Positions 3,905-27,306 of a stretch of DNA of 44,928 bases are shown here, one piece after another (the first letter of the stretch is position 1; each line of letters begins with the position of its first letter). Origin of the DNA: an uncultured Gammaproteobacteria bacterium (GTDB lineage Bacteria > Pseudomonadota > Gammaproteobacteria > Steroidobacterales > UBA11654); contig CAXGBD010000002.1 of the NCBI GenBank assembly GCA_964008355.1, forward strand, positions 1-44,928, written 5' to 3'. Under the pieces are notes generated by a model. That model saw only the letters and a list, made by a program, of their open reading frames with translations, was not told where the DNA came from and ran no database searches. The position numbers and the translations under genes were made by a program.

Positions 3905-3914
3905 CGATACTCCT

Positions 3915-5030
3915 CTATAGTCTTGGAATTTCAGGATATGACCACCCTTCTGGGTTGGCTTTTCTTGCAACAGAAGGGACAACACAGTAGTTGTTATTGG
4001 CAATCATTTCTCGCCATTTTTTTTGATCAATTTGCCAGCCTTTTGCTTTCATTTCATGCATTATTTCCCAGTAAACTTTTATAATTGTGTCTTCGTGAAG
4101 ACCGACAATAGGTGACATACCATCGGGACCACCCTTAGGCACTTGGGCTTCAGCAATATCCTTGTCTTCAAAAATGTTCTTCAAATTTCTCTCAAGTGCT
4201 ATAGGGTCATTTTCTTTTTCAGTCATAAAATTTCTAAAGAAATAATAGCGCATCATTGTGCTTGTTTCATCTATCGGTGTTGAGAATTCATAAAAGCAAT
4301 TGAATGTTCCAGAGCCCATTGCACCAATTTCCACTTCACCTCGGAGTGTTTGTCCAGCTAAAAAATATTTTAAAACAGATTTAACTTGTGTTCCTTTCTC
4401 TCTAATATTTTTCCATTCACCTTTGCTATAGGTTGATTCGGTATGAATAAATGCAGTCAGCCCATAATCAGTTCTCCTGACTTCGTGAGGGGGTGGTTGA
4501 ACTGGGTTTTCTTGATCTAGAAATGATATGCCATGAACAATTGGAAGATGAACATAGTCTAAGTTACTGAACTTTGCCAAATGAAAATTAGATTCAAAAA
4601 CGACATCATATTCAACATAGGTATAACTTGGATCGTCGAGTTCCGGAATGTCAAAAATTGGTACCGCCTGTTCAGGTTGATCCCCTAGAAAAGTCCAGAT
4701 CAATCCATGTTTATCTACTGCGGGATAGTGATCAATTTTGGCTTCAGGGGTTACTTTTTCAGAATCATCACTACCGATAGAAGGTATTTTTCTACAGCGT
4801 CCCTTGTTGTCATATTGCCAGCCATGGAAAGGACACACTATCATCCCTTCCTCGCTACACGAACCATCTGACAAACTCGAGCCTCTGTGTGGACAAACAT
4901 TACTCAGACAGGCTGGGTTGCCTGCTTTATCTCTAAATAAAACAAAATCAGAACCGAGCATTTTCACATACAGAGGCTGATCCTTTAAATCACTGCTTCG
5001 TGCTGCCACATACCAAAGATTGGTGTACAT
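3915..5030 (-). CDS. Rieske [2Fe-2S] non-heme-iron oxygenase, alpha-only VanA/PaO-like type (subfamily A)
   Basis: Rieske motif CPHRG...CPFHGW and mononuclear-iron motif DYVHLPIVH (D-x2-H-x4-H). 371 aa with no adjacent beta subunit. Confidence 0.85.
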   Translation of the reverse strand: MYTNLWYVAARSSDLKDQPLYVKMLGSDFVLFRDKAGNPACLSNVCPHRGSSLSDGSCSEEGMIVCPFHGWQYDNKGRCRKIPSIGSDDSEKVTPEAKIDHYPAVDKHGLIWTFLGDQPEQAVPIFDIPELDDPSYTYVEYDVVFESNFHLAKFSNLDYVHLPIVHGISFLDQENPVQPPPHEVRRTDYGLTAFIHTESTYSKGEWKNIREKGTQVKSVLKYFLAGQTLRGEVEIGAMGSGTFNCFYEFSTPIDETSTMMRYYFFRNFMTEKENDPIALERNLKNIFEDKDIAEAQVPKGGPDGMSPIVGLHEDTIIKVYWEIMHEMKAKGWQIDQKKWREMIANNNYCVVPSVARKANPEGWSYPEIPRL

Positions 5031-6447: not shown

Positions 6448-6534
6448 AGTTCAAATTACAATTTAATTGTTTTTCCTTTTCCCAATTTCATTTTTAATGC
6501 ATGATAAAAAGCTAATACATATTGGAGGTTACAC

Positions 6535-7098: not shown

Positions 7099-7115
7099 TT
7101 ATAAAATTAGAAAAT

Positions 7116-8321: not shown

Positions 8322-8347
8322 TAGCTGTATTGGAGATTATTATAATA

Positions 8348-9283
8348 TTACTTAGAGGTTCTCTCTTGGACATCTATTCTGAGTCCTGCAGGGGATCTTA
8401 AACTACAAACAGGACCGTTTCCATATATTAAATTAAGATCTCCAAAATGGGCTAGATCAACCCCTATTGTTTTTGCTTTTTGAGTGAATGCTTTCATAGA
8501 ATTGGTTAAAAAAGAGCAATGCAAAACCCCTAGTGCGGGGGGAGAAGCTAATTTAAAACGGTTCACTTGATCGGATGCTCCTACATAGCTAATGATTTCT
8601 ACTGTCCCATATCTGTCTTTTTCATCACCGGAGAGTAGTCTTAGATTCAATCCTCCCCCTTGGGGTAAACCAATCATTTTCTCGATGTGTTCTCCAAATA
8701 ACTCTTCGTGTAGAGTTTCTTTCAAGTTGAATAGATCCGAATAGAATTTTCCTTCCCTGGCGGTATCCGGAACGATGACCACCAAGGAGGTGATACCACC
8801 ATAACCTTTTGCCGATAATTTTATTTTCTCTTCTAGCCACTCCATGAAAACAATATTTGTTTCATCGTGACCGGGCATTTGTACTTCAATGACATCTGCT
8901 TGTAATGTTTCTATCCTGTATTCGATGTACTTGGATCTGAATGAATAACCCATTTGTTGCAACTCATCATATTTTTTTGGTAAATCTTTGCAGGAAAGGT
9001 CCAGATTCTTGGGACCCAAATCGGTGCTATTGGCATCTTTTCTGACGGGATCATTGGGAGTCTTAAATTCCACTAAGTGAAGTTGACCAATTTCGACTCC
9101 AGGCGTTCTGACTAAAGCTTGAGTTCTTATATTATCGGGATCTATCCCCCATAGTGTTGCTAAGTTTTCATCTAAACCAGTTATTTTCTTTACCAATTCT
9201 AGATCAAACGTATCAACCCAAAGATCAAGTGCTGAATTGAGGTTCTCTACTCCTATTGCGATGGTTGAAATTGAACTGGGCAT
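8348..9283 (-). CDS. Two-domain VOC (glyoxalase / extradiol dioxygenase) family protein
   Basis: 311 aa with two glyoxalase-like beta-alpha-beta-beta-beta modules by eye (IAIGVENLNSALDLW..., ITSLVVIVPDTAREGKFY...). It lies 26 nt upstream of the MFS gene on the same strand. Confidence 0.55.
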   Translation of the reverse strand: MPSSISTIAIGVENLNSALDLWVDTFDLELVKKITGLDENLATLWGIDPDNIRTQALVRTPGVEIGQLHLVEFKTPNDPVRKDANSTDLGPKNLDLSCKDLPKKYDELQQMGYSFRSKYIEYRIETLQADVIEVQMPGHDETNIVFMEWLEEKIKLSAKGYGGITSLVVIVPDTAREGKFYSDLFNLKETLHEELFGEHIEKMIGLPQGGGLNLRLLSGDEKDRYGTVEIISYVGASDQVNRFKLASPPALGVLHCSFLTNSMKAFTQKAKTIGVDLAHFGDLNLIYGNGPVCSLRSPAGLRIDVQERTSK

Positions 9284-9466
9284 AAGGGTTCTATCTTTTA
9301 TTTTTAATTTAAATCAACGTATCACAGATCTTCATCACAATCCTTGATCTAGATCTATGTTTAACCAGTTTATCCCTCGTTTTGCTAGCATGGTCTCTGA
9401 TGAAAAATACTGCTATTGTAGGTAGAATAAGCAATCTAATGAATGATTGATTCAAATACTGGGAAA

Positions 9467-10654
9467 ATGTTTTCGCAAGATAATCTACCGCTTAAAGGAA
9501 TAAAAGTTACAGAGTTCACCCATATGATTATGGGACCTGCGGTAGGTGCTATTCTTGCTGATTTGGGTGCTGAAGTTATCAGAATTGAACCGGTTACTGG
9601 AGATAAGACGAGATTATTGCCTGGTTCTGGGATTGGCTTTTTTACTTCTTTTAATCGAAATAAAAGATCTATTGCTCTGGATATAAAATCAGACCAAGGC
9701 AAGGATATTGCATTAAAACTGATTCAGGAATCAGATGTACTGATCGAGAATTTCAGACCTGGCACCATGGAAAGACTTGGATTCGGCTACGAGGATCTGA
9801 AACCTTTAAACAACAGGTTGATTTATTGCTCAGCCAAAGGATTTCTCCAGGGCCCTTATGAAAATAGAACAGCCTTGGATGAAATTGCTCAAATGATGGG
9901 TGGGCTTGCTCATATGACCGGACCCATTGGCCAGCCTTTGAGAGCTGGTTCATCGGTGATTGACATTATGGGTGGTATGTTTGGTGTCATTGGTATTTTA
10001 GCTGCTTGCGAACAACTAAAAACTACTGGTAGAGGCCAAAAAATAACCAGTGCTTTATTTGAAAATGTGGCGTATTTGATGACACAACATATGGCTCAAT
10101 ATGCCATTACTGGAGAAGCGGTTCCACCGATGCCGGTTCGTAAATCCGTTTGGGCTATTTATGAGGTCTTTCAAACCAAGGGGGATGAGCAAGTGTTTGT
10201 TGGGGTTGTCAGCGATGCACAGTGGCAATCATTTTGTAAGGCTTTTGATTTACTGGAATTGTTAGAGAATTCTGATTTGAATGAAAATGCCGGCAGAGTG
10301 GAGCATAGAGATCTCATCATCCCCATCATCACTGAAACATTCAAACAATATACCAAATTGGAGTTGATGCAGAAATTGGAAGAAACAGGATTACCGTTTG
10401 CACCGATATCCAAGCCAGAAGACCTTTTCGAAGATCCGCATTTGAATGCATCTGATGGTTTGGTTGCAATCGATCTTCCCGAAGGAGGGCAAGTTAAACT
10501 ACCAACTTTGCCGATAGAAATGGATGGCAATCGATTTGGGGTGAGGTATCAACCTTCACAACCTGGAGAGCACACCAGAGAGATTTTGAGAGAGCTTGAT
10601 TTTGACGATGAGATAATTGATCAGATGGTGAATGAATCGGTTGTGTCAGAATAA
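9467..10654 (+). CDS. Family III CoA-transferase (CaiB/BaiF type)
   Basis: N-terminus PLKGIKVTEFTHMIMGPAVGAILADLGAEVIRIEP is the family signature. ATG 9467 gives the usual N-terminal length, and the track start at 9443 is also possible. Confidence 0.85.
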   Translation: MFSQDNLPLKGIKVTEFTHMIMGPAVGAILADLGAEVIRIEPVTGDKTRLLPGSGIGFFTSFNRNKRSIALDIKSDQGKDIALKLIQESDVLIENFRPGTMERLGFGYEDLKPLNNRLIYCSAKGFLQGPYENRTALDEIAQMMGGLAHMTGPIGQPLRAGSSVIDIMGGMFGVIGILAACEQLKTTGRGQKITSALFENVAYLMTQHMAQYAITGEAVPPMPVRKSVWAIYEVFQTKGDEQVFVGVVSDAQWQSFCKAFDLLELLENSDLNENAGRVEHRDLIIPIITETFKQYTKLELMQKLEETGLPFAPISKPEDLFEDPHLNASDGLVAIDLPEGGQVKLPTLPIEMDGNRFGVRYQPSQPGEHTREILRELDFDDEIIDQMVNESVVSE

Positions 10655-10659
10655 CCGCA

Positions 10660-12024
10660 TTAGTGTGATTCGGCATAATTTCCTGTTTGACTTTCGGTTA
10701 TATGTTTTCGGTAATGTTTGATGCATTTAAATCCTGCGATAATGCCAATGATCCCGACTGTGATTGATACCATGGTCATGGAATAGCGAATCATGCTTTC
10801 ATCTTTGAAAAAGTAATCGTTTAGTAGTCCCACACTAGTAGGCCCTAGTGTGTAACCTGTCATGCTGATGACAAAGTAATAGATGGCGGTGACTTGTCCT
10901 CTGATTTGATTAGGAGTGATGTTGATTATTGCAATGGGGGCAAGAGCTGTCTGGGCAGCTGCAGTAATTATTTGAGGAAGAAACATCAGAGTTGCTAACT
11001 GATAAGTAGGCATCAGGGGCACTAGTGAGGCGCTGACGGCCATTATGATGAAGCAATACGCGAACAATTTAACGTGTGCAGCATTATCACCCTTGTTAAA
11101 TAGTTTATCTCCAAATACACCACTCATGGTTGCACCAAGTGGTCCACCGATAAGAAACACCAATCCTTGCCAAAGTGCAATTGTGCCGATGTCTATGTTA
11201 TATGTTCTGATGTACATTGCAGGCATCCATGACAAGAATGCATATCCAATCAGAACTGAACATGCCATCGATAGAAACAACCATCCATAAGTTTTCTTTC
11301 TTGCTAAAAGAAAATCAATCGTTTGTTTTACGGAAATTTCATCGGTCTGCTGACCGTCTTGTCCCCTGATTATTATTTTGTCTTTTCTTGAAGGTTCTTT
11401 AACGGTTCTCATCAGCACTGCAACAATTAACCCTGGGAGACCCACCAACAGAAATAGAGCTTGCCAGGCGAAAATTTCACCTATGTATGGAAGGATGATT
11501 GGAGGCGCATCGCTGACATAGGCTATAATTTGCCCCCCACCGATGAACGCTATGCCAGATCCAACAGAGACACCCATATTGAAAAATCCCAAGGCCTTGC
11601 CCCGTTTCTCAGCGGGGAAGTAATCACTGATCATTGATAGTCCACTGGGACTTAGAGTCGCTTCTCCAACGCCTACACCAACGCGAGCTAGGAACAACTG
11701 AGTGTAATTCCTAGCCAATCCACAGGCTGCCGTCATCAGACACCAGATTGTTATGCCTGTGGCAATAATTGCTCTTCTGCTTTTTTTATCTGCCAATCGG
11801 CCAATGGGTATGCCCATGGTTGTATAAAACAGTGCAAACGCAAATCCCAACAATAAACTAACTTGAGTATCAGACAGATCCAAGTCTGTTTTTACATCTT
11901 GCACTACCAAGGCAAGTATTTGACGATCTAGAAATGAAACAATATAGGCAATGGTTAGAATAATAACGGCATACCAAGCTCTTTTATTTGAAGGGTAGGT
12001 TTGGATCGTATTGTTTTCAGACAT
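10660..12024 (-). CDS. MFS transporter (Spinster-like)
   Basis: 454 aa with LDRQILALVV, GRLADKKSRR and about 12 TM segments. It is the last gene of the amine-oxidase operon. Confidence 0.8.
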   Translation of the reverse strand: MSENNTIQTYPSNKRAWYAVIILTIAYIVSFLDRQILALVVQDVKTDLDLSDTQVSLLLGFAFALFYTTMGIPIGRLADKKSRRAIIATGITIWCLMTAACGLARNYTQLFLARVGVGVGEATLSPSGLSMISDYFPAEKRGKALGFFNMGVSVGSGIAFIGGGQIIAYVSDAPPIILPYIGEIFAWQALFLLVGLPGLIVAVLMRTVKEPSRKDKIIIRGQDGQQTDEISVKQTIDFLLARKKTYGWLFLSMACSVLIGYAFLSWMPAMYIRTYNIDIGTIALWQGLVFLIGGPLGATMSGVFGDKLFNKGDNAAHVKLFAYCFIIMAVSASLVPLMPTYQLATLMFLPQIITAAAQTALAPIAIINITPNQIRGQVTAIYYFVISMTGYTLGPTSVGLLNDYFFKDESMIRYSMTMVSITVGIIGIIAGFKCIKHYRKHITESQTGNYAESH

Positions 12025-12041
12025 CTGGGTTCAATTAGTTA

Positions 12042-12698
12042 TTATTTTTCCATCCAGCTTAAATCAATTTTTTTATTAGCATCCAAGACTGAATATATTT
12101 TGCCAATTGTTGTTTTATCTTCGATGCATTTTATGATCATGAGTGCCAGATCTTCACGGGACATTCTTCCCAGAATGCACTCTTCTGTCAAGAGACCATC
12201 ACCCGTGGCAGAGTCATTGGTGAGTTGACCCGGTCTAATGATTGTAAAATCCAAACCAGAGTTTCTAAGAATATTCTCTGCCTTTGTTTTTTCGTCAGTG
12301 ATGGGACCTAGTATTGGTTTTAGAACATCTGGCAAATGAGGCTTGCTTTCTCCTGAACCAATGCTAGTGATGAAAATGAGTCTTTTAAATTCAAGGTCAA
12401 CTGCCGATTCAATAATATATTTATTGCCCAAGAAATCAGATCTGGTTCCTTGTTCATTACTCGATCCACCTACTAAGCTAATGACCGTGGCCTCATTGGT
12501 GATGTTACTCATAGCATTAATGACTTGATTGGCATTTAATGCATCTGCTAAGAAAGCATTAGCCCCTAAGGCACTCAAATACTCTCTATCTTTTTCCTTT
12601 CGAGCAGCTGTGTATAAAATATAACTCTTTTTTAGAAGTAGTTTTGATAGAGCCAAGCCGGTGGCTCCTGTTGCCCCGAACAGAATAACAGTTGTCAT
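12042..12698 (-). CDS. NAD(P)H-binding atypical SDR (NmrA / flavin-reductase-like)
   Basis: 218 aa with an N-terminal ILFGATGATG Rossmann motif. Confidence 0.7.
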   Translation of the reverse strand: MTTVILFGATGATGLALSKLLLKKSYILYTAARKEKDREYLSALGANAFLADALNANQVINAMSNITNEATVISLVGGSSNEQGTRSDFLGNKYIIESAVDLEFKRLIFITSIGSGESKPHLPDVLKPILGPITDEKTKAENILRNSGLDFTIIRPGQLTNDSATGDGLLTEECILGRMSREDLALMIIKCIEDKTTIGKIYSVLDANKKIDLSWMEK

Positions 12699-12710
12699 TC
12701 AATCAACTTG

Positions 12711-14138
12711 CTAGAGATTCAGTAAAATGTCAAGAGCAGCACGTTCACCAGCCTCCATGGCTCCTTCCATTCCTGTTGATAGGCGAGCGGTATGAGTTCC
12801 TGCAAAATAGAGTCGTCCGAATGGTTTCGTTAAAATATCACTAAATTTCTTGATTTGCCCTGGACTTAGATAGGCTCCATGGCCTTTGGTCCAGGGATGG
12901 GTGTGCCAATTTTGTACTGCTATGGGCTCTACTTTTCCTTTGGAACTGGGGCGAATTTTAGCCAACTCATCTATGAGATCTTGGACGATGATGTCATCGT
13001 TTTTGTCTTGCCATTTTTTTGTTCGATTGCCAGAGATTGATATCCAATAGTAACCGTGACCCTCTGGGTCTCTGGTCATTTTCACCCAAGTACCGGTTCC
13101 TTCGGCCCACATTATCGGAGGGAGCCCATCTTTTTCCCAGAACGGTTCTTTGATATCAAGAAAAACGGAAATATTTTCATCATAGGGTATTTGCTCTACT
13201 GCAGCTGCATGGAGTTCTGGCAGGGTAGGTTCGATGGTTATTTCTCGAAGCATAGTTAATGGAGTGGTACACACGGCATACTGAGCCTTATAGGTTCTTC
13301 CCGTGCTGTCTTTAATTTCAACACCTTCATCTTTGACTCGAATACCAGTTACTTTTGTGTTTAAGTCAATGTTGCGTTTGAGTAGTGTTGTCATGCCGTC
13401 GGTCAATCGACTCGTACCTCCCTCAATGCCAAACAAGGTATTCACTTCACGAAAGGAAAATAATCTTTGTAAACGTAGTTGCCATAGGGTAGAGACTTCA
13501 CGAAGATCTTTACCGGTGTGTCGCTCTTGGATAATTCTCAATGCCTCTGGATCAATATTTTGTTGTTGTAGGTAGTCGTAGTAGGAAGTATCCAAATAGG
13601 CAGCTTCGGGTTCCAACCACGAGCCTAAATGTTCAAGCGGCGATTGTTTAGGGAAAAATGCATTGGCCTGCGCTATGGGTGGCAATGACTTGGTCTTACC
13701 CATAATCTTGTTTGTCGGTGAAGTTGCCCATTGTTCCATCGCTACAGTTTTTCCATTGATGTAGAACGACATGGCTGGAAAACCAGTGCCAGTTCCCGGT
13801 CCTAACCAAGGGATAAAAGCAAGCCCGAGACGTTTAGCCATATCCACTGTCCGAGGGTGAGATTCAGCGCTTAACTCATTCGCTCCCGCATTCGGCTTAT
13901 GTTTCTTATCATCCAGAGTGTAAACACGACCGCCAATACGATTACTGCCTTCCAGGATCAGAACGTCTAAACCTTGTTCTTCTAAAATTAAAGCCGTGTT
14001 GAGCCCAGATACCCCTGCGCCGATGACGATAACTTGGGCATCTTGATTTCCTGATCTACCAAAAGCTAGTTCTCCAGGAACAGCTACTGCTGCGCCTAAC
14101 AATTGTATTGTACGTCTACGGTTAATAAGTGTTTTCAT
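12711..14138 (-). CDS. Flavin-containing amine oxidase with a twin-arginine signal
   Basis: Tat-like N-terminus INRRRTIQLLGAAVA, the FAD motif VIGAGVSGL...EGSNRIGGR, and the C-terminal FAGTHT...GMEGAMEAGERAA motif typical of the amine-oxidase family. Confidence 0.8.
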   Translation of the reverse strand: MKTLINRRRTIQLLGAAVAVPGELAFGRSGNQDAQVIVIGAGVSGLNTALILEEQGLDVLILEGSNRIGGRVYTLDDKKHKPNAGANELSAESHPRTVDMAKRLGLAFIPWLGPGTGTGFPAMSFYINGKTVAMEQWATSPTNKIMGKTKSLPPIAQANAFFPKQSPLEHLGSWLEPEAAYLDTSYYDYLQQQNIDPEALRIIQERHTGKDLREVSTLWQLRLQRLFSFREVNTLFGIEGGTSRLTDGMTTLLKRNIDLNTKVTGIRVKDEGVEIKDSTGRTYKAQYAVCTTPLTMLREITIEPTLPELHAAAVEQIPYDENISVFLDIKEPFWEKDGLPPIMWAEGTGTWVKMTRDPEGHGYYWISISGNRTKKWQDKNDDIIVQDLIDELAKIRPSSKGKVEPIAVQNWHTHPWTKGHGAYLSPGQIKKFSDILTKPFGRLYFAGTHTARLSTGMEGAMEAGERAALDILLNL

Positions 14139-14394
14139 TCCATCTCCTAAAAAAATAGTACAAACAGCTACATCTTAGATGATGTAGAGACTAGACATTA
14201 ACATAGGTCTTTGTCTAGTAATTGATATAGATCAGTTTTTATATGATTTAGATCAATTTCAAAACCAATATCAATCTATATCATTGATAAGTAATGGATA
14301 TTGATATTATTCTTGAAGCCGGTTTAGTAGTCTGCAAACTAAAATCTTGCTCTCGACTTAGGGCGGAAGATAGGAAGATTAGGAGGGACGAGTT

Positions 14395-15552
14395 ATGATG
14401 TTTACTAATGTTTGGTATGTAGCTGAATCGAGCGATAAAATCAAGGATCAGCCTGTGGGAGTGACAATGTTGGGCCGGGATTTCGTGCTATTTCGCGATC
14501 AGTCCGGTAAACCAGTTTGTCTCAGTGGCGTTTGTCCACACCGCGGGGCTGACTTGTCTCAGGGAAAGTGTGAGCCTGATGGCACGGTCGGTTGTCCTTT
14601 TCATGCGTGGCGTTTTGACAGTAACGGCAGATGCACAAAGATTCCTTCCAACAAAGATCCGGTCGGTGAGATTCCCGATGCAGCACGTGTTGATTCTTAC
14701 CCAACGGAAGAAAAATATGGTTACATCTGGGTATTCTTGGGCGATGATCTAGAAAATGCAGAGCCAATCTTCGACATACCAGAATACAAAGATTCGGCAT
14801 GGTCCAGTGTGACACATGCCGTGACCTGGAACTGTAATCAGCATTGGGCAAAGCAGCTTGATCTCGATCACGTGCATTTACCGATCGTACATGGTATCGG
14901 CTTCGGTGGTGACAACCCAGTTAGACCCCCGGATCATACGGTTGAATATCGTAATGACGGCGGCTTTGAAGCCAAGATCTCTGGCAAGCCGGATATCACA
15001 AAGGGCAAGTGGTTGGAGCTACGCGATACACGCAGTGAGGTGTCTTCGAAATTCAAGTATTTCGTGCCTGGATTTACATCACGTGGCAAAGTTGCTGTCG
15101 GCGGGGTAGAAAAAGGGCTCTATAACATTTTCTATCAGTTCACGACACCGATCGATGAAGAACACACGCGGATGTACTACACGTTTTTCCGTAACTTCAT
15201 GACGGGACCGGAGGGTGATGCTGAACACCTGCGCCGCAATTGTCGGAATATTTATCAGGATAAATCATTGGCGGAAAAGGTCATGCCGAAACGAGCACCG
15301 GATGTACCGGTCTATCCGATGATTACCGCAGACCGCGAGGATAAACTTATCGGTGCATATTGGAAAGTCCTTCAGAACTTGCGGAGCAAGGGCTGGCAGA
15401 TCGACCGGGTACAGCTTGAAGCGTTGGATCAAAACGGTGACCACCGGACTATCCCTTCACCCGCACGTCGGCAGGAAGGTCCTGAGAAATGGGTATTCGA
15501 AGAAATACCCCGCATTGCTGGCACTGATAAGGCACAGCGTGATATAGCCTGA
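14395..15552 (+). CDS. Rieske non-heme-iron oxygenase (subfamily A), GC-rich copy
   Basis: CPHRG...CPFHAW plus DHVHLPIVH, with an AGGAGG site 8 nt upstream. It is a clear paralogue of 3915..5030 but has much higher GC and GC-ending codons. Confidence 0.85.
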   Translation: MMFTNVWYVAESSDKIKDQPVGVTMLGRDFVLFRDQSGKPVCLSGVCPHRGADLSQGKCEPDGTVGCPFHAWRFDSNGRCTKIPSNKDPVGEIPDAARVDSYPTEEKYGYIWVFLGDDLENAEPIFDIPEYKDSAWSSVTHAVTWNCNQHWAKQLDLDHVHLPIVHGIGFGGDNPVRPPDHTVEYRNDGGFEAKISGKPDITKGKWLELRDTRSEVSSKFKYFVPGFTSRGKVAVGGVEKGLYNIFYQFTTPIDEEHTRMYYTFFRNFMTGPEGDAEHLRRNCRNIYQDKSLAEKVMPKRAPDVPVYPMITADREDKLIGAYWKVLQNLRSKGWQIDRVQLEALDQNGDHRTIPSPARRQEGPEKWVFEEIPRIAGTDKAQRDIA

Positions 15553-15616
15553 ACGCAATCGATCAATGTCGGAACCAAGGTACCGGCTGCAATACAACAG
15601 ATTAAGGAGAGCAACG

Positions 15617-15973
15617 ATGAGTCGAGTAAGTAAAATCAACAAAGAACAAAGTGACGGACACTGGAATCTTGTGCGTTTCCGATCAGATGCGTATGACGCC
15701 TGCCAGGCACTTGAAGAAATCGCCTTCGCTGATGGCGCCTTGTCGACAAAGACCAAGGAACTAATGGCGGTTAGTATTTCAATACAAACTGGATGTGAGG
15801 CTGCTATTCAGAAGCACATCGACCGGGCCGCTGAACAGGGAGCAAGTTTTGAGGAGTCATTAGAAGCTATTGAGGTAAGTATCGCCATGGGTGGCAGTAC
15901 AGCCGCTGCCGCTGCGCATGTCGCTTTTTATGCCTTGGACCAGGTCTACTCACGCGAAATTCTCAAGTTCTAA
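15617..15973 (+). CDS. Carboxymuconolactone decarboxylase (CMD/AhpD-like) family protein
   Basis: The pattern FADGALSTKTKELMAVSISIQTGCEAAIQKHIDRAAEQGAS matches CMD-family proteins, with only the first Cys of the usual CxxC present. ATG 15617 follows AAGGAG, and the track start at 15566 has no such site. Confidence 0.65.
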   Translation: MSRVSKINKEQSDGHWNLVRFRSDAYDACQALEEIAFADGALSTKTKELMAVSISIQTGCEAAIQKHIDRAAEQGASFEESLEAIEVSIAMGGSTAAAAAHVAFYALDQVYSREILKF

Positions 15974-16037
15974 CTATAAACAGCCTCTGGAGAAATTCTA
16001 AGCCAGACTGAGTGCCTCTCAAGAGCGAATAACCTGG

Positions 16038-16955
16038 ATGCATCACCTAGAATTCAACAAGACAGGTCCTTTGCAAATCTTTTACGATCTGTTTGAAGAG
16101 CATATGTCCCTGGATGACAATTACCAGTTCTACTCGAACAGCAAAAAAGCAGGAATCAACACGTTTCTCAGCTCCGATATATTCAGCGCTGAGAAAGTTT
16201 CAACGATCATCCTTGAAGAATATTCAATCCGGGGAAAACTGGGCGGCAACGTCATGTTGACTTTTCCCGATCCTGAATACGATGTGCCTATTTTTGCATT
16301 TCAGCTGGGCGGGAATGCCACCAAATCCAAATCATTTGCCCTGTTAGATATCAGTCCAACATTACCCGATTTAGACTACGAGCCTCTGATTCCGGTATTC
16401 GAAAAATACAGAAAACTTCTCGACTTGCCTCGATCAAAAATTGATTGGGTCAATAGCACGAGCTCGCCGTACCTGCTGCTTTGCCAATACGATACTCTGG
16501 ATATCAAGCTGTTCCTCGAAGCCACAAGGGAATACCTGAAGGTATGGATCGAACATTATTACAAACCGGGCAAAAAACTAACCAATGAAAAGGCCTTTGA
16601 GAACGTCAACAATGCCATCATTAAATACAAACGGGTCCTGCACGACAACGATCCTGCTTACGGCATATTTCACAAAGAGTGGGGCGAACCCGTCGCCGAC
16701 GCATTCTTTTATATAGAGACCCGCAATCATCCATCAATCCCACCGCCGGATCATTCCGGAAAGACAAAAAAAGCATGGGAAAACAAGAGCTTGAATATTC
16801 TCTGGGAAATCCAGGCACAGGAGCGCGTTTTACAGGCTCCCGAGCAGGTACAAAAGCGTATTATTGACACCATTGAAGCGAAAGCGTCTGACGACAATAT
16901 GGGAATCATCACGCTGGAATTATTCGACAAATATAAAGAAGCTATATTCGTCTAA
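16038..16955 (+). CDS. Divergent ferredoxin-dependent bilin reductase (FDBR)-fold protein with a C-terminal extension
   Basis: Hand alignment to remembered PcyA. ILEEYSIRGKLGGNVMLTFPDPEYDVPIFAFQLGG...LLDISPT aligns with [36 protein letters not shown]...IADLSPT. NDPAYGIFHKEWGEPVADAFF aligns with [21 protein letters not shown]. Confidence 0.5.
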   Translation: MHHLEFNKTGPLQIFYDLFEEHMSLDDNYQFYSNSKKAGINTFLSSDIFSAEKVSTIILEEYSIRGKLGGNVMLTFPDPEYDVPIFAFQLGGNATKSKSFALLDISPTLPDLDYEPLIPVFEKYRKLLDLPRSKIDWVNSTSSPYLLLCQYDTLDIKLFLEATREYLKVWIEHYYKPGKKLTNEKAFENVNNAIIKYKRVLHDNDPAYGIFHKEWGEPVADAFFYIETRNHPSIPPPDHSGKTKKAWENKSLNILWEIQAQERVLQAPEQVQKRIIDTIEAKASDDNMGIITLELFDKYKEAIFV

Positions 16956-17001
16956 ACCGTCCGGTTAAACCTAATAAAAAAATGCACTTTTTTTAACTTT
17001 C

Positions 17002-17871
17002 TTACTTAAGCGGAGGTGCCGGAGTTTGTTCTCTTGCATAGTATTCCAGACTGGAAATGCTGGGTCCGTAATCTTCCGTTGGGGCGCTGAGCATATGTGG
17101 ATAATTTTCTTCAGCGAATTGCCTGATATGCTTTGGAATGATATCGATTGAATTTGATTTAATCATGGCTCCAACGTATACACAATGACCAGGTGTATCT
17201 CCCATTAACATCCAAGGTAGCCAGGGTGTTATGCGACTCCAGGTTCCATTGTAGTGCACTGAAGTTAATTCAGGATTTTGTAATTCGTCTAATGATACAA
17301 AATAGCGCATCATTTCAGAGACTTGAGCCATTGGACCTGATGATTCTCTGACCCACTTATCAGGTTGCAGCGCATTGGGATAATAAAGGTGCATATCAGT
17401 ATTTAAAACCACGGTATCACCTATTATTCTCCAGGGGAAAAGCAGAGGAATTTTGATTGGCTGTTGTTTTTCCTTTCCTGGAAAATCTTCAGGAGCAAGG
17501 ATCAGCCACTCACTGATCGTATAATTAAAGGGATCATTGGCGACGTGAACGACATTAACCACTTCTTCTGTCCAGGGATTGGTCCATTCATGAATGATTT
17601 CACCGCTTCGAGAATTGGTGTAGAAAATAACCTCCTTATTTAATCGACGAATCGTACCGTCCTCTTGCTGAGGCAGCAGTCGGGTACACAAAAATGTTTC
17701 AAATCCGCACAATTCTTTTACAGCCTCACCAGGCTTAACACCAAGAATTTGGCCATTGACATAACTAATTGATTCATTCTCTGAGTTTAAATCACCCTGG
17801 ATTCTAGCCCAGGCGTCTCTGTTCCATGTATTGGATTGAAAATTTATTTCATGTTCAAATTCAATGGTCAT
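17002..17871 (-). CDS. DUF1838-like protein of unknown function
   Basis: The core EVIFYTNSRSGEIIHEWTNPWTEEVVNVVHVANDPFN resembles my recollection of DUF1838. There is no signal peptide. ATG 17871 follows AAGGAG. Confidence 0.45.
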   Translation of the reverse strand: MTIEFEHEINFQSNTWNRDAWARIQGDLNSENESISYVNGQILGVKPGEAVKELCGFETFLCTRLLPQQEDGTIRRLNKEVIFYTNSRSGEIIHEWTNPWTEEVVNVVHVANDPFNYTISEWLILAPEDFPGKEKQQPIKIPLLFPWRIIGDTVVLNTDMHLYYPNALQPDKWVRESSGPMAQVSEMMRYFVSLDELQNPELTSVHYNGTWSRITPWLPWMLMGDTPGHCVYVGAMIKSNSIDIIPKHIRQFAEENYPHMLSAPTEDYGPSISSLEYYAREQTPAPPLK

Positions 17872-17884
17872 TCTTTTCTCCTTG

Positions 17885-18412
17885 TTAACGCGATTCACGC
17901 ATGATGTAATTAATAATTAATTTTCTTGTATCTGGATCTTCAATTCCTTCCATTCTCATCCTATTTCCAGGAATAAAATCTTTAGGATTGGACATGAAAG
18001 CATCCAATGCCTCTGGTGTCCAGATCAACCCGTTATTTTTCATCTGGATGAGTGCATCAGAATATGTGAAATTGTCAGAGATACCTGCAGGTTTAGCAAA
18101 AATACGATATAAACTTGGAGCCATTCGATCTCTATCATTAGCTTTTATTGAATGACAGAATCTACACTTGCCCCCATCCCAGTTGGAAAAGGCATCTGCT
18201 TCCATTTGCTTTTGTTCATCGCTGATCATTGGTAGTTCATTGAGATAATAATCTGGCAGATCCAGATTGGCAGTTAATTGCTTAATCTCATCTGGGGTGG
18301 CATTGGTTGTATTGGTCAATGGATAGGCACCAAATATTAGGTAGGGCAAATAACAAGATACTGCTAGTAAAATTAAAACCAAAAGCCAGTCTTTTTTCTT
18401 GCCAATTTTCAT
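17885..18412 (-). CDS. Membrane-anchored class I c-type cytochrome
   Basis: N-terminal TM anchor WLLVLILLAVSCYLPYLIF, heme motif CRFCH, and a distal PGNRM Met ligand as in cytochrome c2/c550. Confidence 0.8.
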   Translation of the reverse strand: MKIGKKKDWLLVLILLAVSCYLPYLIFGAYPLTNTTNATPDEIKQLTANLDLPDYYLNELPMISDEQKQMEADAFSNWDGGKCRFCHSIKANDRDRMAPSLYRIFAKPAGISDNFTYSDALIQMKNNGLIWTPEALDAFMSNPKDFIPGNRMRMEGIEDPDTRKLIINYIMRESR

Positions 18413-18431
18413 TGCTTACCCATCTTAATAA

Positions 18432-18953
18432 TCAAGTGAAAATATTAAATCGCCAAACCCGGTAACGGATCATATGATAAATACCTATGAGTACAATAAA
18501 CAAGATGATAGCGATATATAAAAATGCAAATACACTGTGAAGATAACCAGAAAAAACCCACAGAGCATGATTAACAGATTCCGAGCTCGATTGAAATTGT
18601 ATCAACCCGTCAGACCAAGCGGTAACCACACCGGTAAGCCCCTGAGCAATGAAGGAACAATAAAGAGTAAACTGAAGAACATGCAATTGATTGAAAGCTT
18701 CTTGTGGTAATTTTTGTTGTTTGTTTTGAGGAGGGAAGTGCCACCAAATATAAACCCTGAGAAAACTAAATGCGAATAAGATGGAAGCAATTGCCAAATG
18801 AAAACTTCTTAACGAAGCCCTTTCAGGTGATTCGATCGGAACTCTAGGGGCCACAGACATGTTGATGAAAACCACAATGAATAGTACAAGAATTAGCCAA
18901 CTTAATAACGTGGATGTCTTATCTGCTACTGTTGTTTTTTGTAAGTGATCCAC
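18432..18953 (-). CDS. Cytochrome b561 (CybB-like) membrane protein
   Basis: Four TM helices with His residues placed as in E. coli CybB (RSFHLAI, QLHVLQF, VNHAL...YLHSV). The position of the first CybB HW motif reads SW. The GTG start lies 2 nt after the upstream stop. Confidence 0.55.
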   Translation of the reverse strand: MDHLQKTTVADKTSTLLSWLILVLFIVVFINMSVAPRVPIESPERASLRSFHLAIASILFAFSFLRVYIWWHFPPQNKQQKLPQEAFNQLHVLQFTLYCSFIAQGLTGVVTAWSDGLIQFQSSSESVNHALWVFSGYLHSVFAFLYIAIILFIVLIGIYHMIRYRVWRFNIFT

Positions 18954-18955
18954 GT

Positions 18956-19741
18956 TTAAAGATTTTGCATAAAGGTTTTAAAAGTGTCGACAATCGTTGC
19001 CGAGTCTAAGTCAGTTTCATAATTCTTGCCACTGATTTCTTTATAGGTTGCATCTGGTCTGAGTTCTTTTGCTACGTTAAAAAACGGATATAAAACATCA
19101 TCTGGGGCACACATTATCAGCATGGGGCAATCAATTTGCTTAAAAAGGCTTATGAAGTCCTGCTCCCAAACCGATTCGTGTGCTTGGTGTACTGAATGAT
19201 AAGCTCTCAAGGTGTCCAGCGTTTCTCTGTGGTGCAGTTCAAGGTGGCCTCTTGCTCCAAGGATATCTCCCACTAAATTCCACGCCATCATCAAGTGGCT
19301 GCCGTCATCGACTGGACTCCAATCTGCACCCATAGATGCTCGCATGACCTCTTTTTCTTCTACCGTTGCGGCAAAGGGACCGATCATGGTTATTGAGGAG
19401 ATTAAACTTGGGTATTCATTGGCAATTTCGACTGCCATACAGGATCCTGTGTGGTGGCCAAAGAGGTGAAGTTTTTCCAATGAGAGAGCTTCAAAAATTT
19501 GTAGCAACCAATCGCAATATTCTTTCATAGTTGGGGTATTGACAGGGTCAAAACTTGCTCCGAAACCGGGGGTATCAATAGCATACATGGAGTGTTCATT
19601 TCCAAGTTGATTCATTATTGCTTCAAACATCCTTGAAGAACTGGGAACTTGATGCAGGAAAACAATCGGTAAGCCTTCACCTTCAACAAAGCGGATATGA
19701 CACTGTCCCTCAGAAGTATCAATATATTTTTTTCTAATCAT
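18956..19741 (-). CDS. Alpha/beta-hydrolase-fold protein with a non-canonical nucleophile elbow
   Basis: Fold markers VFLHQ, DTPGFGAS and an elbow reading FGHHTGS instead of G-x-S/D-x-G. The start overlaps the MFS stop (ATGATTAG). Confidence 0.7.
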   Translation of the reverse strand: MIRKKYIDTSEGQCHIRFVEGEGLPIVFLHQVPSSSRMFEAIMNQLGNEHSMYAIDTPGFGASFDPVNTPTMKEYCDWLLQIFEALSLEKLHLFGHHTGSCMAVEIANEYPSLISSITMIGPFAATVEEKEVMRASMGADWSPVDDGSHLMMAWNLVGDILGARGHLELHHRETLDTLRAYHSVHQAHESVWEQDFISLFKQIDCPMLIMCAPDDVLYPFFNVAKELRPDATYKEISGKNYETDLDSATIVDTFKTFMQNL

Positions 19742-21068
19742 TTATATGCACCTCGTCAGGTTGTAATTTTGATTGAAACAGCATACCAGGGGCTCTTATT
19801 CTGACAATAATTGTAGCCAAAAGTAGCACACTATGCATTCCACATATGAAAAGGAATGGACCTGAAGGTCCCAGTTGATCAAATAGTCGACCCCCCAAAG
19901 CGGTCGCTGTTAGAATGCCTATTGCTCCAAAAAGCGTGCTGATACCTATAATCGAACCCCGTTGTTTAGCAGGAGCTTCTTGCCCGATCAGGCTACTTGT
20001 GGCTATGACGGTCCCAATGGCACTGCAGGAAACTAGAATAAAGAAGGGTAGATTGGAATAATTCAATGGGGAATCGATCAAGGCCATAGAACCATAGGCA
20101 ATGGTTCCCAAAGTCATCGCCACAATCATGCCGCTTACCCGATTGATACGGTCAAGTATTGCGCCAAAAATAAAAGCCCAAACAATACTCACTAAATTGG
20201 TTACAACAATAACCCGGACAACTAGTTGGATCGAATCGGCTGCAGACAATCCCATCATTGCTCCACTCTGTATCGCCCATAGTGAGATAAATATGCCATT
20301 AACTGAAACATCTGCTCTTGCCAGAAACGTTGTCCCAAACGAGAGTGCGATTCTCGGGTTCTTAAATGATTGTATGCCGACTGTAACCAGCTCTTTTACA
20401 GAAGGTTTCTGACTCAATTTTTCCGGAGTTCCGCCTTTTAATCCCAGTTGAAAAATCAGTCCAGAAATCAGGAATACAATTCCAACAATGATCATTGTAT
20501 ATCGTCCAGATGTAACTGGATCGAGACCGTTGTTGGTAAAGTATTTGGGAAGTTGACCCAGTATAAAAGCGAAGACAGCAACACCTAAGGCATTCAATAC
20601 CGAGTGCATGCTAATAAACTTAGCCCTTGATTGTTCCTTAGGATAATCATTGACGATGATTGCAATCGTTGAGGCAAGTGCAGCTGCACCTAAAGCAAAT
20701 AGGGCCCGATACGCGAACAACTCACCTGTGGATGTCGCGAAGGGATACAAAGCAAAACCAATGGCCGAAACCACCGTTCCAAAAACCATGACTGATCGCC
20801 TGCCTATCCGATCTGCTAGGATGCCAAAAAATGCAACGAATAATATTGCTATAATTTCTTGAATAAAAGCTAAATCCCCACTGATGGTTCCTTGATTGGA
20901 TTTCGGGATAGCAAGATTCTCCGTGAGTATATATCCTTGAATGAAGTTCATTCCAGCCAGTACTCCAATACAAATAAAGCAGGCGTAGAAATATGTAATG
21001 ACATTGAACCGAGAGATTCCTGGTGCCAATTGTATTGGGCCGAATTTATTGTTCAAATCTTTCTCCAT
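19734..21068 (-). CDS. MFS transporter (type X, paralogue of 5137..6447)
   Basis: 444 aa with GPIQLAPGISR and ADRIGRRS, collinear with the 5137..6447 product. Confidence 0.8.
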   Translation of the reverse strand: MEKDLNNKFGPIQLAPGISRFNVITYFYACFICIGVLAGMNFIQGYILTENLAIPKSNQGTISGDLAFIQEIIAILFVAFFGILADRIGRRSVMVFGTVVSAIGFALYPFATSTGELFAYRALFALGAAALASTIAIIVNDYPKEQSRAKFISMHSVLNALGVAVFAFILGQLPKYFTNNGLDPVTSGRYTMIIVGIVFLISGLIFQLGLKGGTPEKLSQKPSVKELVTVGIQSFKNPRIALSFGTTFLARADVSVNGIFISLWAIQSGAMMGLSAADSIQLVVRVIVVTNLVSIVWAFIFGAILDRINRVSGMIVAMTLGTIAYGSMALIDSPLNYSNLPFFILVSCSAIGTVIATSSLIGQEAPAKQRGSIIGISTLFGAIGILTATALGGRLFDQLGPSGPFLFICGMHSVLLLATIIVRIRAPGMLFQSKLQPDEVHIND

Positions 21069-21096
21069 GCTCTAGTAGGAATCGCCTATGAATCAT

Positions 21097-22164
21097 TTAC
21101 CAGTAATGCACCCAACGAGCATTTTCCAGAAATTTTTTGTATGCGTCCTGTTTATTTTTAGGTAGGGTTTTTAGATACAGTCCAGAATCATATCGTTCCT
21201 GATATTGATCAAATACAGGTTGGTATAATTTCAAATGCAAATCTGGAATTCGATGTTTTTCTCTGAAGGCTTTGATTGGAATGGAAGCCGCTATTTTTGT
21301 CTCAAAAACCCCAGCCTTTGCTATTTCTAAGCCTCTAGGACCAAATATCGCAGAACGCCCTGGCCCTCCATAATTTGCATCGTCAAAAAAACCGGGGTTG
21401 CGTTCCCCAGTATTGATTGAGTTGTTGGCAATTAATGTATACAGACTGTTATGGTAGGAGGTGAGTCGCATATCCTCATATTCAAATCCACCGGTTGCAA
21501 CTCGGCAAATAATTTCAGCCCCCTTAAAGGCCATACATCGAAATAACTCAGGTTCAAATTGAACAGCCGACATGGCGATGTTTCCAATATCAGTTTGAAC
21601 AACAGGAATCACCTGATCTTGTCCATACATTTCTATAAAACGATCATAAACATCATATATGGAACTGGTGTACTGTTCTGATCCTGGAAATAGGCCACGG
21701 ACATTTCTCTGTTTCCAATGTTTTGCAACAACATCACCATCAGGGCCCATCATCACCATTAAGTGTAGGATGTGTTCAGGCCAATCAGGATCCTTGGCGT
21801 ATGTTCCGAAAACAATATAGCAGCCGTGTTCTTTGCATTTTTTTCCTATTTCTTCAGTTTCTACTCCCGGGACCTCGATGGCTACTTTGTAGTGCTCTTC
21901 CTTAGACCAATTACTGAATCCGGTGATGGGGAATTCATGAAAGCATATGAGATCACTTCTACCACCAAAGCCTTGAGTAATATCGATGCATTCCAGCAAG
22001 TAGTCCAAGTTTTTTCTTATGCCTTTAGGAGGATTTTTTCCATCTACACCCTGGACTCTGGTTTGGGCAATGGCGATCGAGATCATGTCTTTTTTTAAAG
22101 GAGCAGTGGAGTAGGTTCCATCTGCACGGACCATAGCATCTTTCTCTTTGTTTTCTGAGGGCAT
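21097..22164 (-). CDS. Carbon-nitrogen hydrolase, aliphatic amidase/formamidase-like, with Ser at the catalytic Cys position
   Basis: ICFHEFP (Glu), KHWKQ (Lys), and IAMSAVQFEPELFRCMAFKGAEIICR aligned to AmiE [29 protein letters not shown]. ATG 22164 (MPSENKE) follows AGGAG. Confidence 0.75.
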   Translation of the reverse strand: MPSENKEKDAMVRADGTYSTAPLKKDMISIAIAQTRVQGVDGKNPPKGIRKNLDYLLECIDITQGFGGRSDLICFHEFPITGFSNWSKEEHYKVAIEVPGVETEEIGKKCKEHGCYIVFGTYAKDPDWPEHILHLMVMMGPDGDVVAKHWKQRNVRGLFPGSEQYTSSIYDVYDRFIEMYGQDQVIPVVQTDIGNIAMSAVQFEPELFRCMAFKGAEIICRVATGGFEYEDMRLTSYHNSLYTLIANNSINTGERNPGFFDDANYGGPGRSAIFGPRGLEIAKAGVFETKIAASIPIKAFREKHRIPDLHLKLYQPVFDQYQERYDSGLYLKTLPKNKQDAYKKFLENARWVHYW

Positions 22165-22340
22165 AAAGCTGCTCCTAGGACACATTAAATTATTTGAGAC
22201 TATAGCATATATATCAGAGTTTGTAGTTGGGCCTAATTATTCACATTCATTGAATCTTGCAGTCAAAAAGAGAAGTGAGAATGACATAATTCAGCCCGGT
22301 ACAGGTAAGCAAAAACGCATAAAATAATCTTATTGTTATA

Positions 22341-23810: not shown

Positions 23811-23818
23811 CTGTTGAT

Positions 23819-24931: not shown

Positions 24932-25033
24932 TTATTTTCCCCTATTAATCTGATCCAGATTGATTATATTCGTATCAGGCTAATAATTTAAGCCGGATAA
25001 GTAATTATTTGTAACAAGCATAGTGAGTTGTGA

Positions 25034-26143: not shown

Positions 26144-26254
26144 AATGAAGTCCCCTATTCAAATTTTAGCAATCTAACCTATCTAAGAAATTACAATTCA
26201 ACAATGATATAGATCAATTAACAAGGATTACCAAAATAATCGGTTTTCACTAAA

Positions 26255-27154: not shown

Positions 27155-27306
27155 CGTCCTATTCTAACACCGGTTAGGTCACATTTTAATTGGTTGTTGA
27201 TACATTGGTAAATTCTTAATATACAGATTATAGGAAAGTTCGAATACAATGCATTCTATATTTTGAAATGATGATAAAATTCAGCCTATTATAATATCGA
27301 GAAATC

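Follow-up and report, generated by a model that had tools for sequence, protein, structure and literature searches.

Several described systems stand close to the locus considered here. Small islets arising by illegitimate or homology-facilitated illegitimate recombination after DNA uptake have been described for naturally transformable bacteria; the cassettes of integrons carry attC sites, i.e., imperfect inverted repeats of about 60-120 nt at the cassette 3' end, and have constant ends; and the genes of ferredoxin-dependent bilin reductases (FDBR) are a known cargo of marine phages (PebS, PcyX). The locus in question, positions 14,139-17,001 of a 45-kb stretch of DNA (44,928 nt, 40.2% G+C, 39 genes; this whole stretch is referred to as the window) of an uncultured gammaproteobacterium, contains three plus-strand genes, for the alpha subunit of a Rieske oxygenase, for a protein of the AhpD/carboxymuconolactone decarboxylase (CMD) type, and for an FDBR-like protein with a PCP_red domain. 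It is very probable that this GC-rich stretch is foreign DNA brought to one intergenic site by two separate transfers, neither with a recognisable mobile element: an older one of the Rieske-CMD pair (module A) and a recent one of the FDBR-like gene (module B). As a transfer event it is of a known kind, a small islet by illegitimate recombination, and what has been gained beyond the earlier note on this DNA is a history in two steps, an empty site, a donor lineage, exact junctions, and a third gene seen to have spread through several contexts.

With genomic islands and integron cassettes the stretch shares an odd composition, an accessory metabolic cargo and, for module B, presence or absence in close lineages, whereas it measures 2.6 kb, results from two events, is without tRNA target, integrase, direct repeats or attC, and, unlike the islands, is fixed rather than variable in all the window-type contigs recovered here that reach it. 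With the islets it has in common the foreign composition, sharp gene-sized edges, the replacement of short resident DNA, the lack of integrase, transposase and duplication, and an intergenic site at the end of operons; it differs from them by the absence of anchoring homology at either window junction, and in that the FDBR-like gene has settled in at least three low-GC contexts, its breakpoints varying between them; chance events would not usually give such a pattern, and selection is suggested by it. As with the phage-borne genes of PebS and PcyX, a single gene of the FDBR family moves horizontally among marine microbes, but no copy of it was found in the viral contigs and phage genomes searched, and its recipients live as heterotrophs in the dark ocean, being neither cyanobacteria nor cyanobacterial phages.

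Foreign composition and two modules of different age

The baseline for the composition was made of the 36 window genes other than the three GC-rich ones on the plus strand. The G+C content at third codon positions (GC3) of these 36 genes averages 0.347 (standard deviation 0.030, range 0.287-0.397), as against 0.497 for 14395-15552, 0.478 for 15566-15973 and 0.526 for 16038-16955, which corresponds to z-scores of 5.0, 4.4 and 6.0, and the tetranucleotide deviation has its window-wide peak at 14501-17000 (z = 4.3), so that the deviating composition of a classical genomic island is present. The earlier note, a model's reading of the bare sequence, had called the three genes visibly GC-richer than their surroundings, and these values bear it out; its four spot counts of 60-nt lines (35, 32, 25 and 15 G+C) were reproduced exactly, the mean per line being 28.6 inside the three genes and 23.9 elsewhere (Mann-Whitney p = 2.5e-11). 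The preference for GC-ending codons that it had listed (CCG, CGC, GGC, CTG) was recovered when codon usage was computed against the other genes: the fractions of GGC, CCG and CTG rise from 0.20 to 0.44, from 0.14 to 0.33 and from 0.14 to 0.25, respectively, while among the Arg codons AGA falls from 0.46 to 0.12 and CGC together with CGG rises from 0.11 to 0.52. The borders are AT-rich, as had been stated (G+C 0.324 at 14139-14394 and 0.304 at 16956-17001), but the left spacer is not neutral filler and holds the relic of a luciferase-like monooxygenase (LLM) gene; the gaps among the three genes are 64 nt each. The proposed lateral acquisition from a donor of higher GC is thus supported by the composition and, beyond it, by the comparative evidence that follows.

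What had been described as one cassette consists of two modules differing in age and source; a sister lineage has the Rieske-CMD pair and not the FDBR-like gene. This lineage is represented by three contigs (L088, L089 and L090), which were reached via members of the DUF1838 cluster with 86% identity. It is syntenic with the window at 92% nucleotide identity over 6113-16018 and at 86-89% over 16988-27974, and in all three contigs the order is amine oxidase, spacer, Rieske, CMD, a 147-nt spacer and DUF1838. The 969 nt of 16019-16987 stand where L088, the only one of the three aligned as DNA, has about 90 nt of unrelated spacer; module B is missing from the sister, module A being present in both lineages. 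The search for relatives via the amine-oxidase flank gave nothing in the scan of the genome collection and no homologues of 48-99% identity in the protein search.

A contig of the gammaproteobacterial metagenome-assembled genome (MAG) Fu_MAG_100 (DASCMH01; L013, 52% GC) matches the window at 95.6% nucleotide identity over exactly 16022-16976, with unrelated flanks, the donor DNA around the captured gene amounting to 16 nt upstream and 21 nt downstream. L013 is syntenic around the FDBR-like gene with another contig (L001, 56% GC), the nucleotide identity between the two contigs being 78% for the gene and 72-76% for its neighbours; as the gene and its neighbours have diverged equally, the gene appears native to, and vertically inherited in, this 52-56% GC gammaproteobacterial lineage, which, to judge from the match, is the source of module B. 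The synonymous divergence (dS) of the FDBR-like gene is 0.085 between the window and L013 and 0.016 between the window and the copy of the L083 type described below, i.e., well below the window-to-sister level of about 0.25, and together with the absence of the gene in the sister this places the transfer after the split of the two lineages. Every window-type contig recovered here that extends to the site carries the gene.

The same allele group was found in further contexts. In five contigs (L083-L087), one of which belongs to a MAG named Dehalococcoidia, the gene begins 2 nt after a gene of fatty-acid desaturase and is followed by two LLM genes; the L083-type copy agrees with 16037-16976 at 99.1% identity, and its L013-like 3' flank is longer by about 100 nt. 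In the contig L063 (G+C 0.384) the gene stands after a Baeyer-Villiger-type monooxygenase gene and keeps 150 nt of the L013-like 5' flank. Over the stretches available, module B of the window is about 98-99% identical to the copies in these two contexts, and it has the shortest donor flanks of all the copies. Since the L063 copy retains more of the 5' flank and the L083 copy more of the 3' flank, neither derives from the other, and the breakpoints point to at least two, probably three, separate insertion events. In both the window and L083 the gene is without its own upstream region and is placed at the 3' end of a pre-existing gene array.

Two single contigs may be recorded beside these contexts. 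The region 9985-11041 of L082 (Ga0373647_0004678) combines a window-type left context (Rieske-CMD) with the FDBR allele and the 3' tail of the L083 type, which could reflect true recombination or else a path taken by the assembler from one context to the other through the gene that they share. The contig L064 (8165-8647; FUCH17-1 scaffold_2534) agrees with the window as far as 15638, where it has passed 22 nt of the CMD gene, and continues with 483 nt of unrelated low-GC sequence with a membrane-like protein on the opposite strand, being either a variant without the CMD and FDBR-like genes or a misjoin.

Module A is older. The sister lineage holds the Rieske-CMD pair at the same locus, at a window-to-sister dS of 0.255 (Rieske) and 0.215 (CMD), and that of the flanking genes is mostly 0.15-0.6 (0.15 for the amine oxidase, with 96% amino acid identity); from the matching dS and the shared locus, the acquisition predates the split of the window and sister lineages. 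In the sister the GC3 of module A is 0.53 and 0.48 against 0.31-0.42 for its flanks. The occurrence at the same locus with the same composition in all relatives, which the earlier note had regarded as an argument against acquisition, was thus observed for module A in the only sister found, module B being absent there; as module A is equally foreign in the sister, the observation dates the transfer rather than refutes it. In the neighbour-joining tree, the Rieske protein 14395-15552 nests in the clade P0119-P0133, its closest relative (89% amino acid identity) coming from a 49% GC genome, and the two sequences of this clade with recovered loci come from DNA of 49-56% GC. In three unrelated contexts (L006-8, L009-11 and L088-90) the Rieske gene is immediately followed by the CMD gene, and the pair occurs without the FDBR-like gene in a 49% GC context (89% and 75% amino acid, 78% nucleotide identity) and in a 55% GC context (81% amino acid identity). 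The GC3 of these homologues follows the host (0.51 in L008; 0.65 and 0.60 in L010, where the neighbours have 0.63-0.77), so the deviation is not intrinsic to the genes. The synonymous sites are saturated with respect to the closest non-sister relative (dS 1.9). On the left, the G+C content jumps from 0.246 at 14217-14330 to 0.453 in the leader 14331-14394, which sets the compositional edge of the foreign DNA near 14331.

The kinship of the Rieske gene with the native-composition gene 3915-5030 had also been reported, and the two proteins are indeed paralogous, with 47.7% identity over the full length and with the quoted motifs in both. A recent duplication does not follow from it: 3915-5030 falls in a separate clade with P0229 and P0232-P0236 (73-77% identical), and the two genes, by their positions in the tree, belong to different deep clades of the subfamily and are not recent duplicates.

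The arrangement recurs in public data. Both junctions were found in at least nine independent assemblies, with the whole arrangement at 99.6-100% nucleotide identity to the window (the assemblies include Tara Oceans PRJEB1787 and PRJEB4352, ERZ837174, ERZ840877, BERT20-1 and GCA_002896255.2), and the public collection has about 180 blocks with an identical FDBR-like protein and likewise about 180 with an identical DUF1838 flank protein. A chimeric assembly was considered, as several contigs end inside the gene, and was ruled out by the recurrence of both junctions and by the manner of the breaks. The contigs that break near the gene stop k-1 bases inside about 16031-38 or 16976 (16836, 16850 and 16858 are the end points for k141, k127 and k119 contigs, respectively), which is the pattern of a de Bruijn graph with a segment common to several contexts and not that of a misjoin in the window. 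The recipient is a low-GC (40%) marine bacterium of the mesopelagic and deep ocean, globally distributed and abundant.

Layout of the locus, its spacers and neighbours

The features of the region 12711-17898, together with the second Rieske gene, are collected in the table below. The start of the CMD-like gene is most likely 15617 and not the longest-ORF start 15566, and gene callers agree on it in every related contig.

Features of the locus and its borders (positions in the window)
Feature	Positions	Strand	Basis and remarks
Flavin amine oxidase, left flank, first gene of a native-composition minus-strand operon	12711..14138	-	Pfam Amino_oxidase E 1e-52; GC3 0.380
Divergent-promoter spacer with two hairpin palindromes	14139..14216		GC 0.333; conserved in the sister lineage
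Relic: promoter region and truncated 5' end of an LLM gene	14217..14330	+	GC 0.246; homology to L083
Module A: leader, Rieske alpha subunit, AhpD/CMD-like gene, trailing spacer	14331..16018	+	Sister homology up to 16018; GC jump
Rieske [2Fe-2S] non-heme-iron oxygenase alpha subunit, VanA/DdmC/KshA type, 385 aa	14395..15552	+	Pfam Rieske, VanA_C
AhpD/CMD-fold protein, 118 aa	15617..15973	+	Pfam CMD 53.3 bits
Module B, 969 nt: donor-homologous 16022-16976 plus 11-nt filler 16977-16987	16019..16987	+	Absent from the sister; L013 match
FDBR-fold protein with C-terminal PCP_red domain, 305 aa	16038..16955	+	Pfam Fe_bilin_red 65.8 bits; AlphaFold2; Foldseek
Leftover ancestral CMD-DUF1838 spacer	16988..17001		Sister homology resumes at 16988
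DUF1838 protein, right flank, last gene of a native-composition minus-strand operon	17002..17898	-	Pfam DUF1838 E 5.7e-46; GC3 0.371
Native-composition Rieske paralogue	3915..5030	-	47.7% aa identity to 14395-15552; GC3 0.309; separate clade

Within the left spacer, 14217-14321 is 85.7% identical to L083 3331-3435, which spans the start of an intact LLM gene (MDIDIILEA...). The window retains a 12-codon LLM stump, MDIDIILEAGLV followed by a stop, with the relic ORF ATGGATATTGATATTATTCTTGAAGCCGGTTTAGTAG at about 14294-14330, and the stump is kept in the sister lineage too. On the simplest reading, module A would have taken the place of an LLM gene, of which the promoter region and the first codons stayed behind. 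An inverted repeat of 18 nt (14258-14275 / 14300-14317) overlaps a promoter-like site (14284-14313) within the relic, a combination with an operator-like look, and a palindrome of the spacer was also scored as a terminator-like hairpin (14168-14187); promoter and terminator scans of the spacers gave matches no more frequent than in shuffled sequence, and no Rfam match for a structured RNA or riboswitch was found there. The two near-perfect palindromes of the divergent spacer (14168-14222) read CTACATCttagatGATGTAG and ACTAGACA...TGTCTAGT, and L083 has a part of this palindrome/repeat element in two places, before its desaturase gene and before the first of its LLM genes. About five lineages have a member of the LLM subfamily with the N-terminus MDI[DE]IILE, to which the relic belongs, no more than a few kb away from the FDBR-like gene (L013 4725-5756, L044, L023 7964-8968, L046 5708-6715, L043 8044-9054 and L083 3408-5425), and a functional association of this subfamily with the FDBR-like gene is possible from such proximity.

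The right flank gene, DUF1838, has diverged from its sister counterpart at a dS of 1.1 (82% nucleotide identity, patchy) against about 0.3 for its neighbours. A recombination tract tied to the insertion was considered as the cause and rejected, the divergence being patchy and with no concentration at the junction. DUF1838 genes are also found near a PCP_red-fused Rieske gene in L057 (1329-2417 and 13814-14677), and one is near an FDBR-like gene in L026 (8249-8995).

Elsewhere in the window, two more Rieske/VanA_C genes of native composition stand in tandem at 23819-24931 and 25034-26143 (48.7% identical to each other and about 32-35% to the other two), which gives four Rieske paralogues, along with five MFS transporters, within the 45 kb. 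An SDR gene at 3113-4003 (TTG start, longest ORF) overlaps the upstream Rieske gene 3915-5030 by 89 nt; its SDR domain begins at residue 38-40, so the true start probably lies further downstream.

Properties of the encoded proteins

The Rieske protein of module A matches the Pfam families Rieske (85 bits) and VanA_C (31.8 bits against a cut-off of 23.5), both above threshold, its best sequence matches in the PDB being phthalate dioxygenase, SxtT and DdmC, and also NdmA. It carries the ligand motifs of the Rieske alpha subunits, CPHRG...CPFHAW and DHVHLPIVH. Many degraders of aromatic or methylated compounds have several Rieske paralogues per genome, and the locus resembles the VanA, DdmC, KshA and phthalate oxygenases in this respect as well as in the CxH...CxxH and Dx2Hx4H motifs and the VanA_C domain; it differs from them in that module A is without a reductase or ferredoxin partner and has a conserved AhpD/CMD-like one instead. 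The latter protein exceeds the cut-off of PF02627 (23 bits; see the table for the score). The canonical AhpD motif is CxxCxxxH; the protein reads GCEAAIQKH, with Ala in place of the second Cys. The working guess is that the pair may form an oxygenase module for some dissolved organic compound.

The FDBR-like protein, well above the PF05996 (Fe_bilin_red) cut-off of 31 bits, falls far below all the cut-offs of the NCBIfam equivalogs PebA, PcyA and PebB. Its AlphaFold2 model, built with 30 homologues (pLDDT 92.4), shows the alpha/beta/alpha sandwich of the FDBR. Foldseek ranked PcyA first (2g18, E 1.5e-10, target-normalised TM 0.73), followed by PebB, PebA, HY2 and then the red chlorophyll catabolite reductase RCCR (E 3e-7), and the model residues of about 250-300 superpose on 2kru, the PCP_red domain of the protochlorophyllide reductase subunit B, with an rmsd of 0.8 A. 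In the profile alignment to PcyA/PebA, the four invariant residues Glu60, Val72, Gln89 and Asp205 correspond to Glu76, His88, Asp105 and Asp220 of PcyA, the last being equivalent to Asp256 of HY2 and Asp205 of PebA. Glu60 and Asp205 (in a DPAYG motif) are invariant in 30 sequences, so that the counterparts of PcyA Glu76 and of the C-terminal Asp are present, while the central catalytic Asp (Asp105 of PcyA and PebS, Asp84 of PebA) is replaced by the invariant Gln89. The resulting signature Glu/Val/Gln/Asp matches none of the three given in Table 2 of PMC13446030, i.e., Ala/Asn/Glu/Ser of Pre-1, Val/Asn/Asp/Asp of Pre-2 and Ala/Thr/Asp/Arg of Pre-3.

Accordingly, the protein shares with the FDBR and pre-PcyA enzymes the PF05996 match, the fold (TM 0.6-0.73), the equivalents of Glu76 and Asp256 and, as a trait of pre-PcyA, the non-photosynthetic hosts, and departs from them by Gln for Asp105, Val for His88, the additional PCP_red domain and the lack of pre-PcyA partner genes nearby. 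Among the neighbours annotated with Pfam, whether in the window or in the other contexts consulted, there are neither the heme oxygenase, BBAG globin, V4R and Fe-S proteins of the pre-PcyA cluster nor the B12-binding protein and globin of Pre-2, and in those other contexts no tetrapyrrole gene or electron-transfer partner was found among these neighbours. Open reading frame clustering at 36 gammaproteobacterial loci revealed no recurrent neighbour family, only lineage-specific synteny. At four Bacteroidota loci the immediate neighbours, by Pfam, contained no tetrapyrrole gene or electron-transfer partner and were unrelated (secretion-tail proteins, AbiEii/RloB, glycosidases, rubrerythrin). Outside the window lineage, the Rieske-CMD pair and the FDBR-like gene were never neighbours in the contexts found, so their adjacency in the window looks historical, not functional.

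The family is small: a search of 1.84 billion representatives gave 20 clusters (50% identity) with E <= 1e-30, nearly all members being from MAGs of uncultured Gammaproteobacteria, with distant relatives in Bacteroidota and Ignavibacteria, and about half of the family has the additional C-terminal PCP_red domain. The dN/dS ratio is 0.02 over long distances and 0.26-0.44 for recent pairs, and its low value indicates that the gene is under purifying selection. No description of this family or of the FDBR plus PCP_red architecture was found in the papers searched, and two recent FDBR phylogenies mention unplaced, uncharacterised lineages and give no details. By its sequence and model, the protein would best be called an uncharacterised variant of the FDBR superfamily. 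The working guess is that it would reduce, with ferredoxin, a bilin-like substrate or some other planar one, independently of the Rieske-CMD pair; that the substrate is a tetrapyrrole appears possible, though on balance doubtful.

The PCP_red domain (PF08369) was also seen fused to a flavin reductase, a Rieske oxygenase, radical SAM/SPASM, Usp and rubredoxin-like proteins, often in 3-5 tandem copies (e.g., L057 1-524 and 8001-9434; P0397, P0424, P0427 and P0429), and the papers searched contain no description of its role outside protochlorophyllide reductase. It was considered as a specific functional link between Rieske and FDBR proteins and rejected in view of its presence on the other protein types.

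History of the locus, alternative readings and significance

In the favoured history, a Rieske plus AhpD/CMD pair from a donor of about 50% GC would have landed beside the amine-oxidase operon before the window/sister split, probably displacing an LLM gene of which the promoter region and first codons would be the remains. Later, in the window lineage alone, some 90 nt of the spacer that follows the CMD gene would have given way to a 969-nt piece, which brought one promoterless FDBR-fold/PCP_red gene to the 3' end of the Rieske-CMD array, where it would presumably be transcribed by read-through; the same allele group would also have entered at least two other contexts with different breakpoints. 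With junctions free of duplication and inverted repeats, illegitimate or microhomology-mediated recombination of taken-up DNA would be the most likely route.

Several points weigh against this history. The donor of module A is not among the sampled genomes, the best relative being 78% identical in nucleotides, and all the relatives found carry the module, so that its acquisition, to which composition and phylogeny point, comes with no empty site. The LLM relic may have been co-imported with module A instead of being native, and the copies of the L063 and L083 types may sit in other organisms or elsewhere in the same genome. The host bins are inconsistent, since proteins at least 90% identical to the native genes occur in MAGs named Gammaproteobacteria (4) and Candidatus Marinimicrobia (2), and a MAG named Dehalococcoidia is represented in the cluster of the FDBR-like protein. 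That the three genes are co-transcribed is a presumption, and the uptake of DNA is something that we infer.

The alternatives account for parts of the evidence. A single cassette, from which the sister later lost the FDBR-like gene, would explain why the three genes are adjacent, co-oriented and similar in GC3 (0.48-0.53), with the same 64 nt between them; it is nevertheless very improbable, because the FDBR-like gene is far closer in dS to its outside copies than the window is to the sister, the sister site consists of unrelated spacer with no deletion scar, the donor-like similarity ends sharply at 16022 and 16976, and the pair and the third gene are not neighbours in any other context found. 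The near-identical, single-gene-sized copies in at least four contexts could also suggest a vehicle that has escaped recognition, for instance a cassette of the integron kind, the particle of a phage or gene-transfer agent, or some small non-autonomous element, the more so as marine phages carry FDBR genes such as PebS and PcyX, whose structures are among the fold matches. Against a vehicle, the breakpoints differ from one context to another, although constant ends would be expected of a defined element; the junctions of module B have no target duplication and no inverted or terminal repeats; in place of attC there is just a 5-bp hairpin after the stop codon, the ends varying across four contexts; and searches of 2.9 million viral contigs, 50,697 phage genomes and 72,556 plasmids gave no relative. 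Neither did Pfam searches of all 39 window genes return any integrase, recombinase or transposase, and together with the negative repeat scan this agrees with the earlier statement that mobility genes and obvious flanking direct repeats are lacking: the repeats are limited to chance 10-mers, and the sole tRNA, a tRNA-Arg (anticodon TCG) at 3021-3097 between 5-oxoprolinase-like genes and the SDR/Rieske pair, is 11 kb off and unrelated to the foreign region. Such a vehicle is hence rather improbable, and from the properties of classical islands and integron cassettes only the deviating composition and, for module B, the presence/absence pattern were observed.

Transfer itself could be denied by appeal to a gene-specific constraint (expression, amino acids) or to an assembly or binning artefact, and the unusual amino acid make-up of the FDBR-like protein (G+C at second codon positions 0.307) and the public contigs breaking inside or at the edges of its gene might be read in this way. 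Such a denial has next to no credibility, for the third codon positions and the synonymous choice deviate most, the homologues track the GC3 of their hosts, the presence/absence pattern relative to the sister is direct evidence of gain, and the junctions recur in the independent assemblies, the contig breaks obeying the k-1 rule. The remaining reading concerns the function: the products of all three genes would serve a single pathway for the opening and reduction of a tetrapyrrole macrocycle, with the Rieske protein acting like pheophorbide a oxygenase (PAO) and the FDBR-like protein like RCCR. In plants, the Rieske oxygenase PAO works with the FDBR-fold reductase RCCR, and this precedent, the place of RCCR among the structural matches, and the PCP_red domain on both the FDBR-like protein and Rieske homologues of 47-49% identity would favour the pathway. 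The PAO-RCCR pairing is mentioned in PMC10151467. The pathway is hardly to be credited when the modules arrived at different times and were never neighbours outside this lineage, the Rieske protein matches VanA_C and not the PaO domain, the FDBR classes fit the model better than RCCR does (E 1.5e-10 vs 3e-7), PCP_red is non-specific, being fused to several unrelated protein types, and neither the 36 loci nor the four Bacteroidota loci offered a recurrent neighbour family or a tetrapyrrole gene, respectively.

Two separate transfers thus being the preferred reading, the lateral transfer itself is ordinary, and the locus is unusually well resolved for an uncultured organism, with an empty site in the sister, a syntenic donor lineage, exact breakpoints and two further independent landing sites. 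It offers a clean natural example of the capture of a promoterless single gene into operons in the absence of mobility genes. The cargo is more interesting, as a small uncharacterised branch of bilin reductases with a new domain combination and active-site signature; it seems to be spreading at present among abundant heterotrophs of the deep ocean, and is a good target for biochemistry. A more far-reaching joint reading, which we regard as unlikely, is that the FDBR-fold/PCP_red gene stands for a class of enzymes, so far uncharacterised, of heterotrophs in the dark ocean, that it is under strong positive selection, and that it is now spreading as a naked single gene among unrelated lineages (the bins being Gammaproteobacteria, Marinimicrobia and Dehalococcoidia), where the 3' end of an existing oxygenase operon receives it in every case. 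If that were true, it would mean a new catalytic variant of the FDBR, with Gln replacing the central Asp, and, if the substrate were bilins or linear tetrapyrroles sinking from the photic zone, tetrapyrrole salvage or signalling in non-photosynthetic mesopelagic bacteria.

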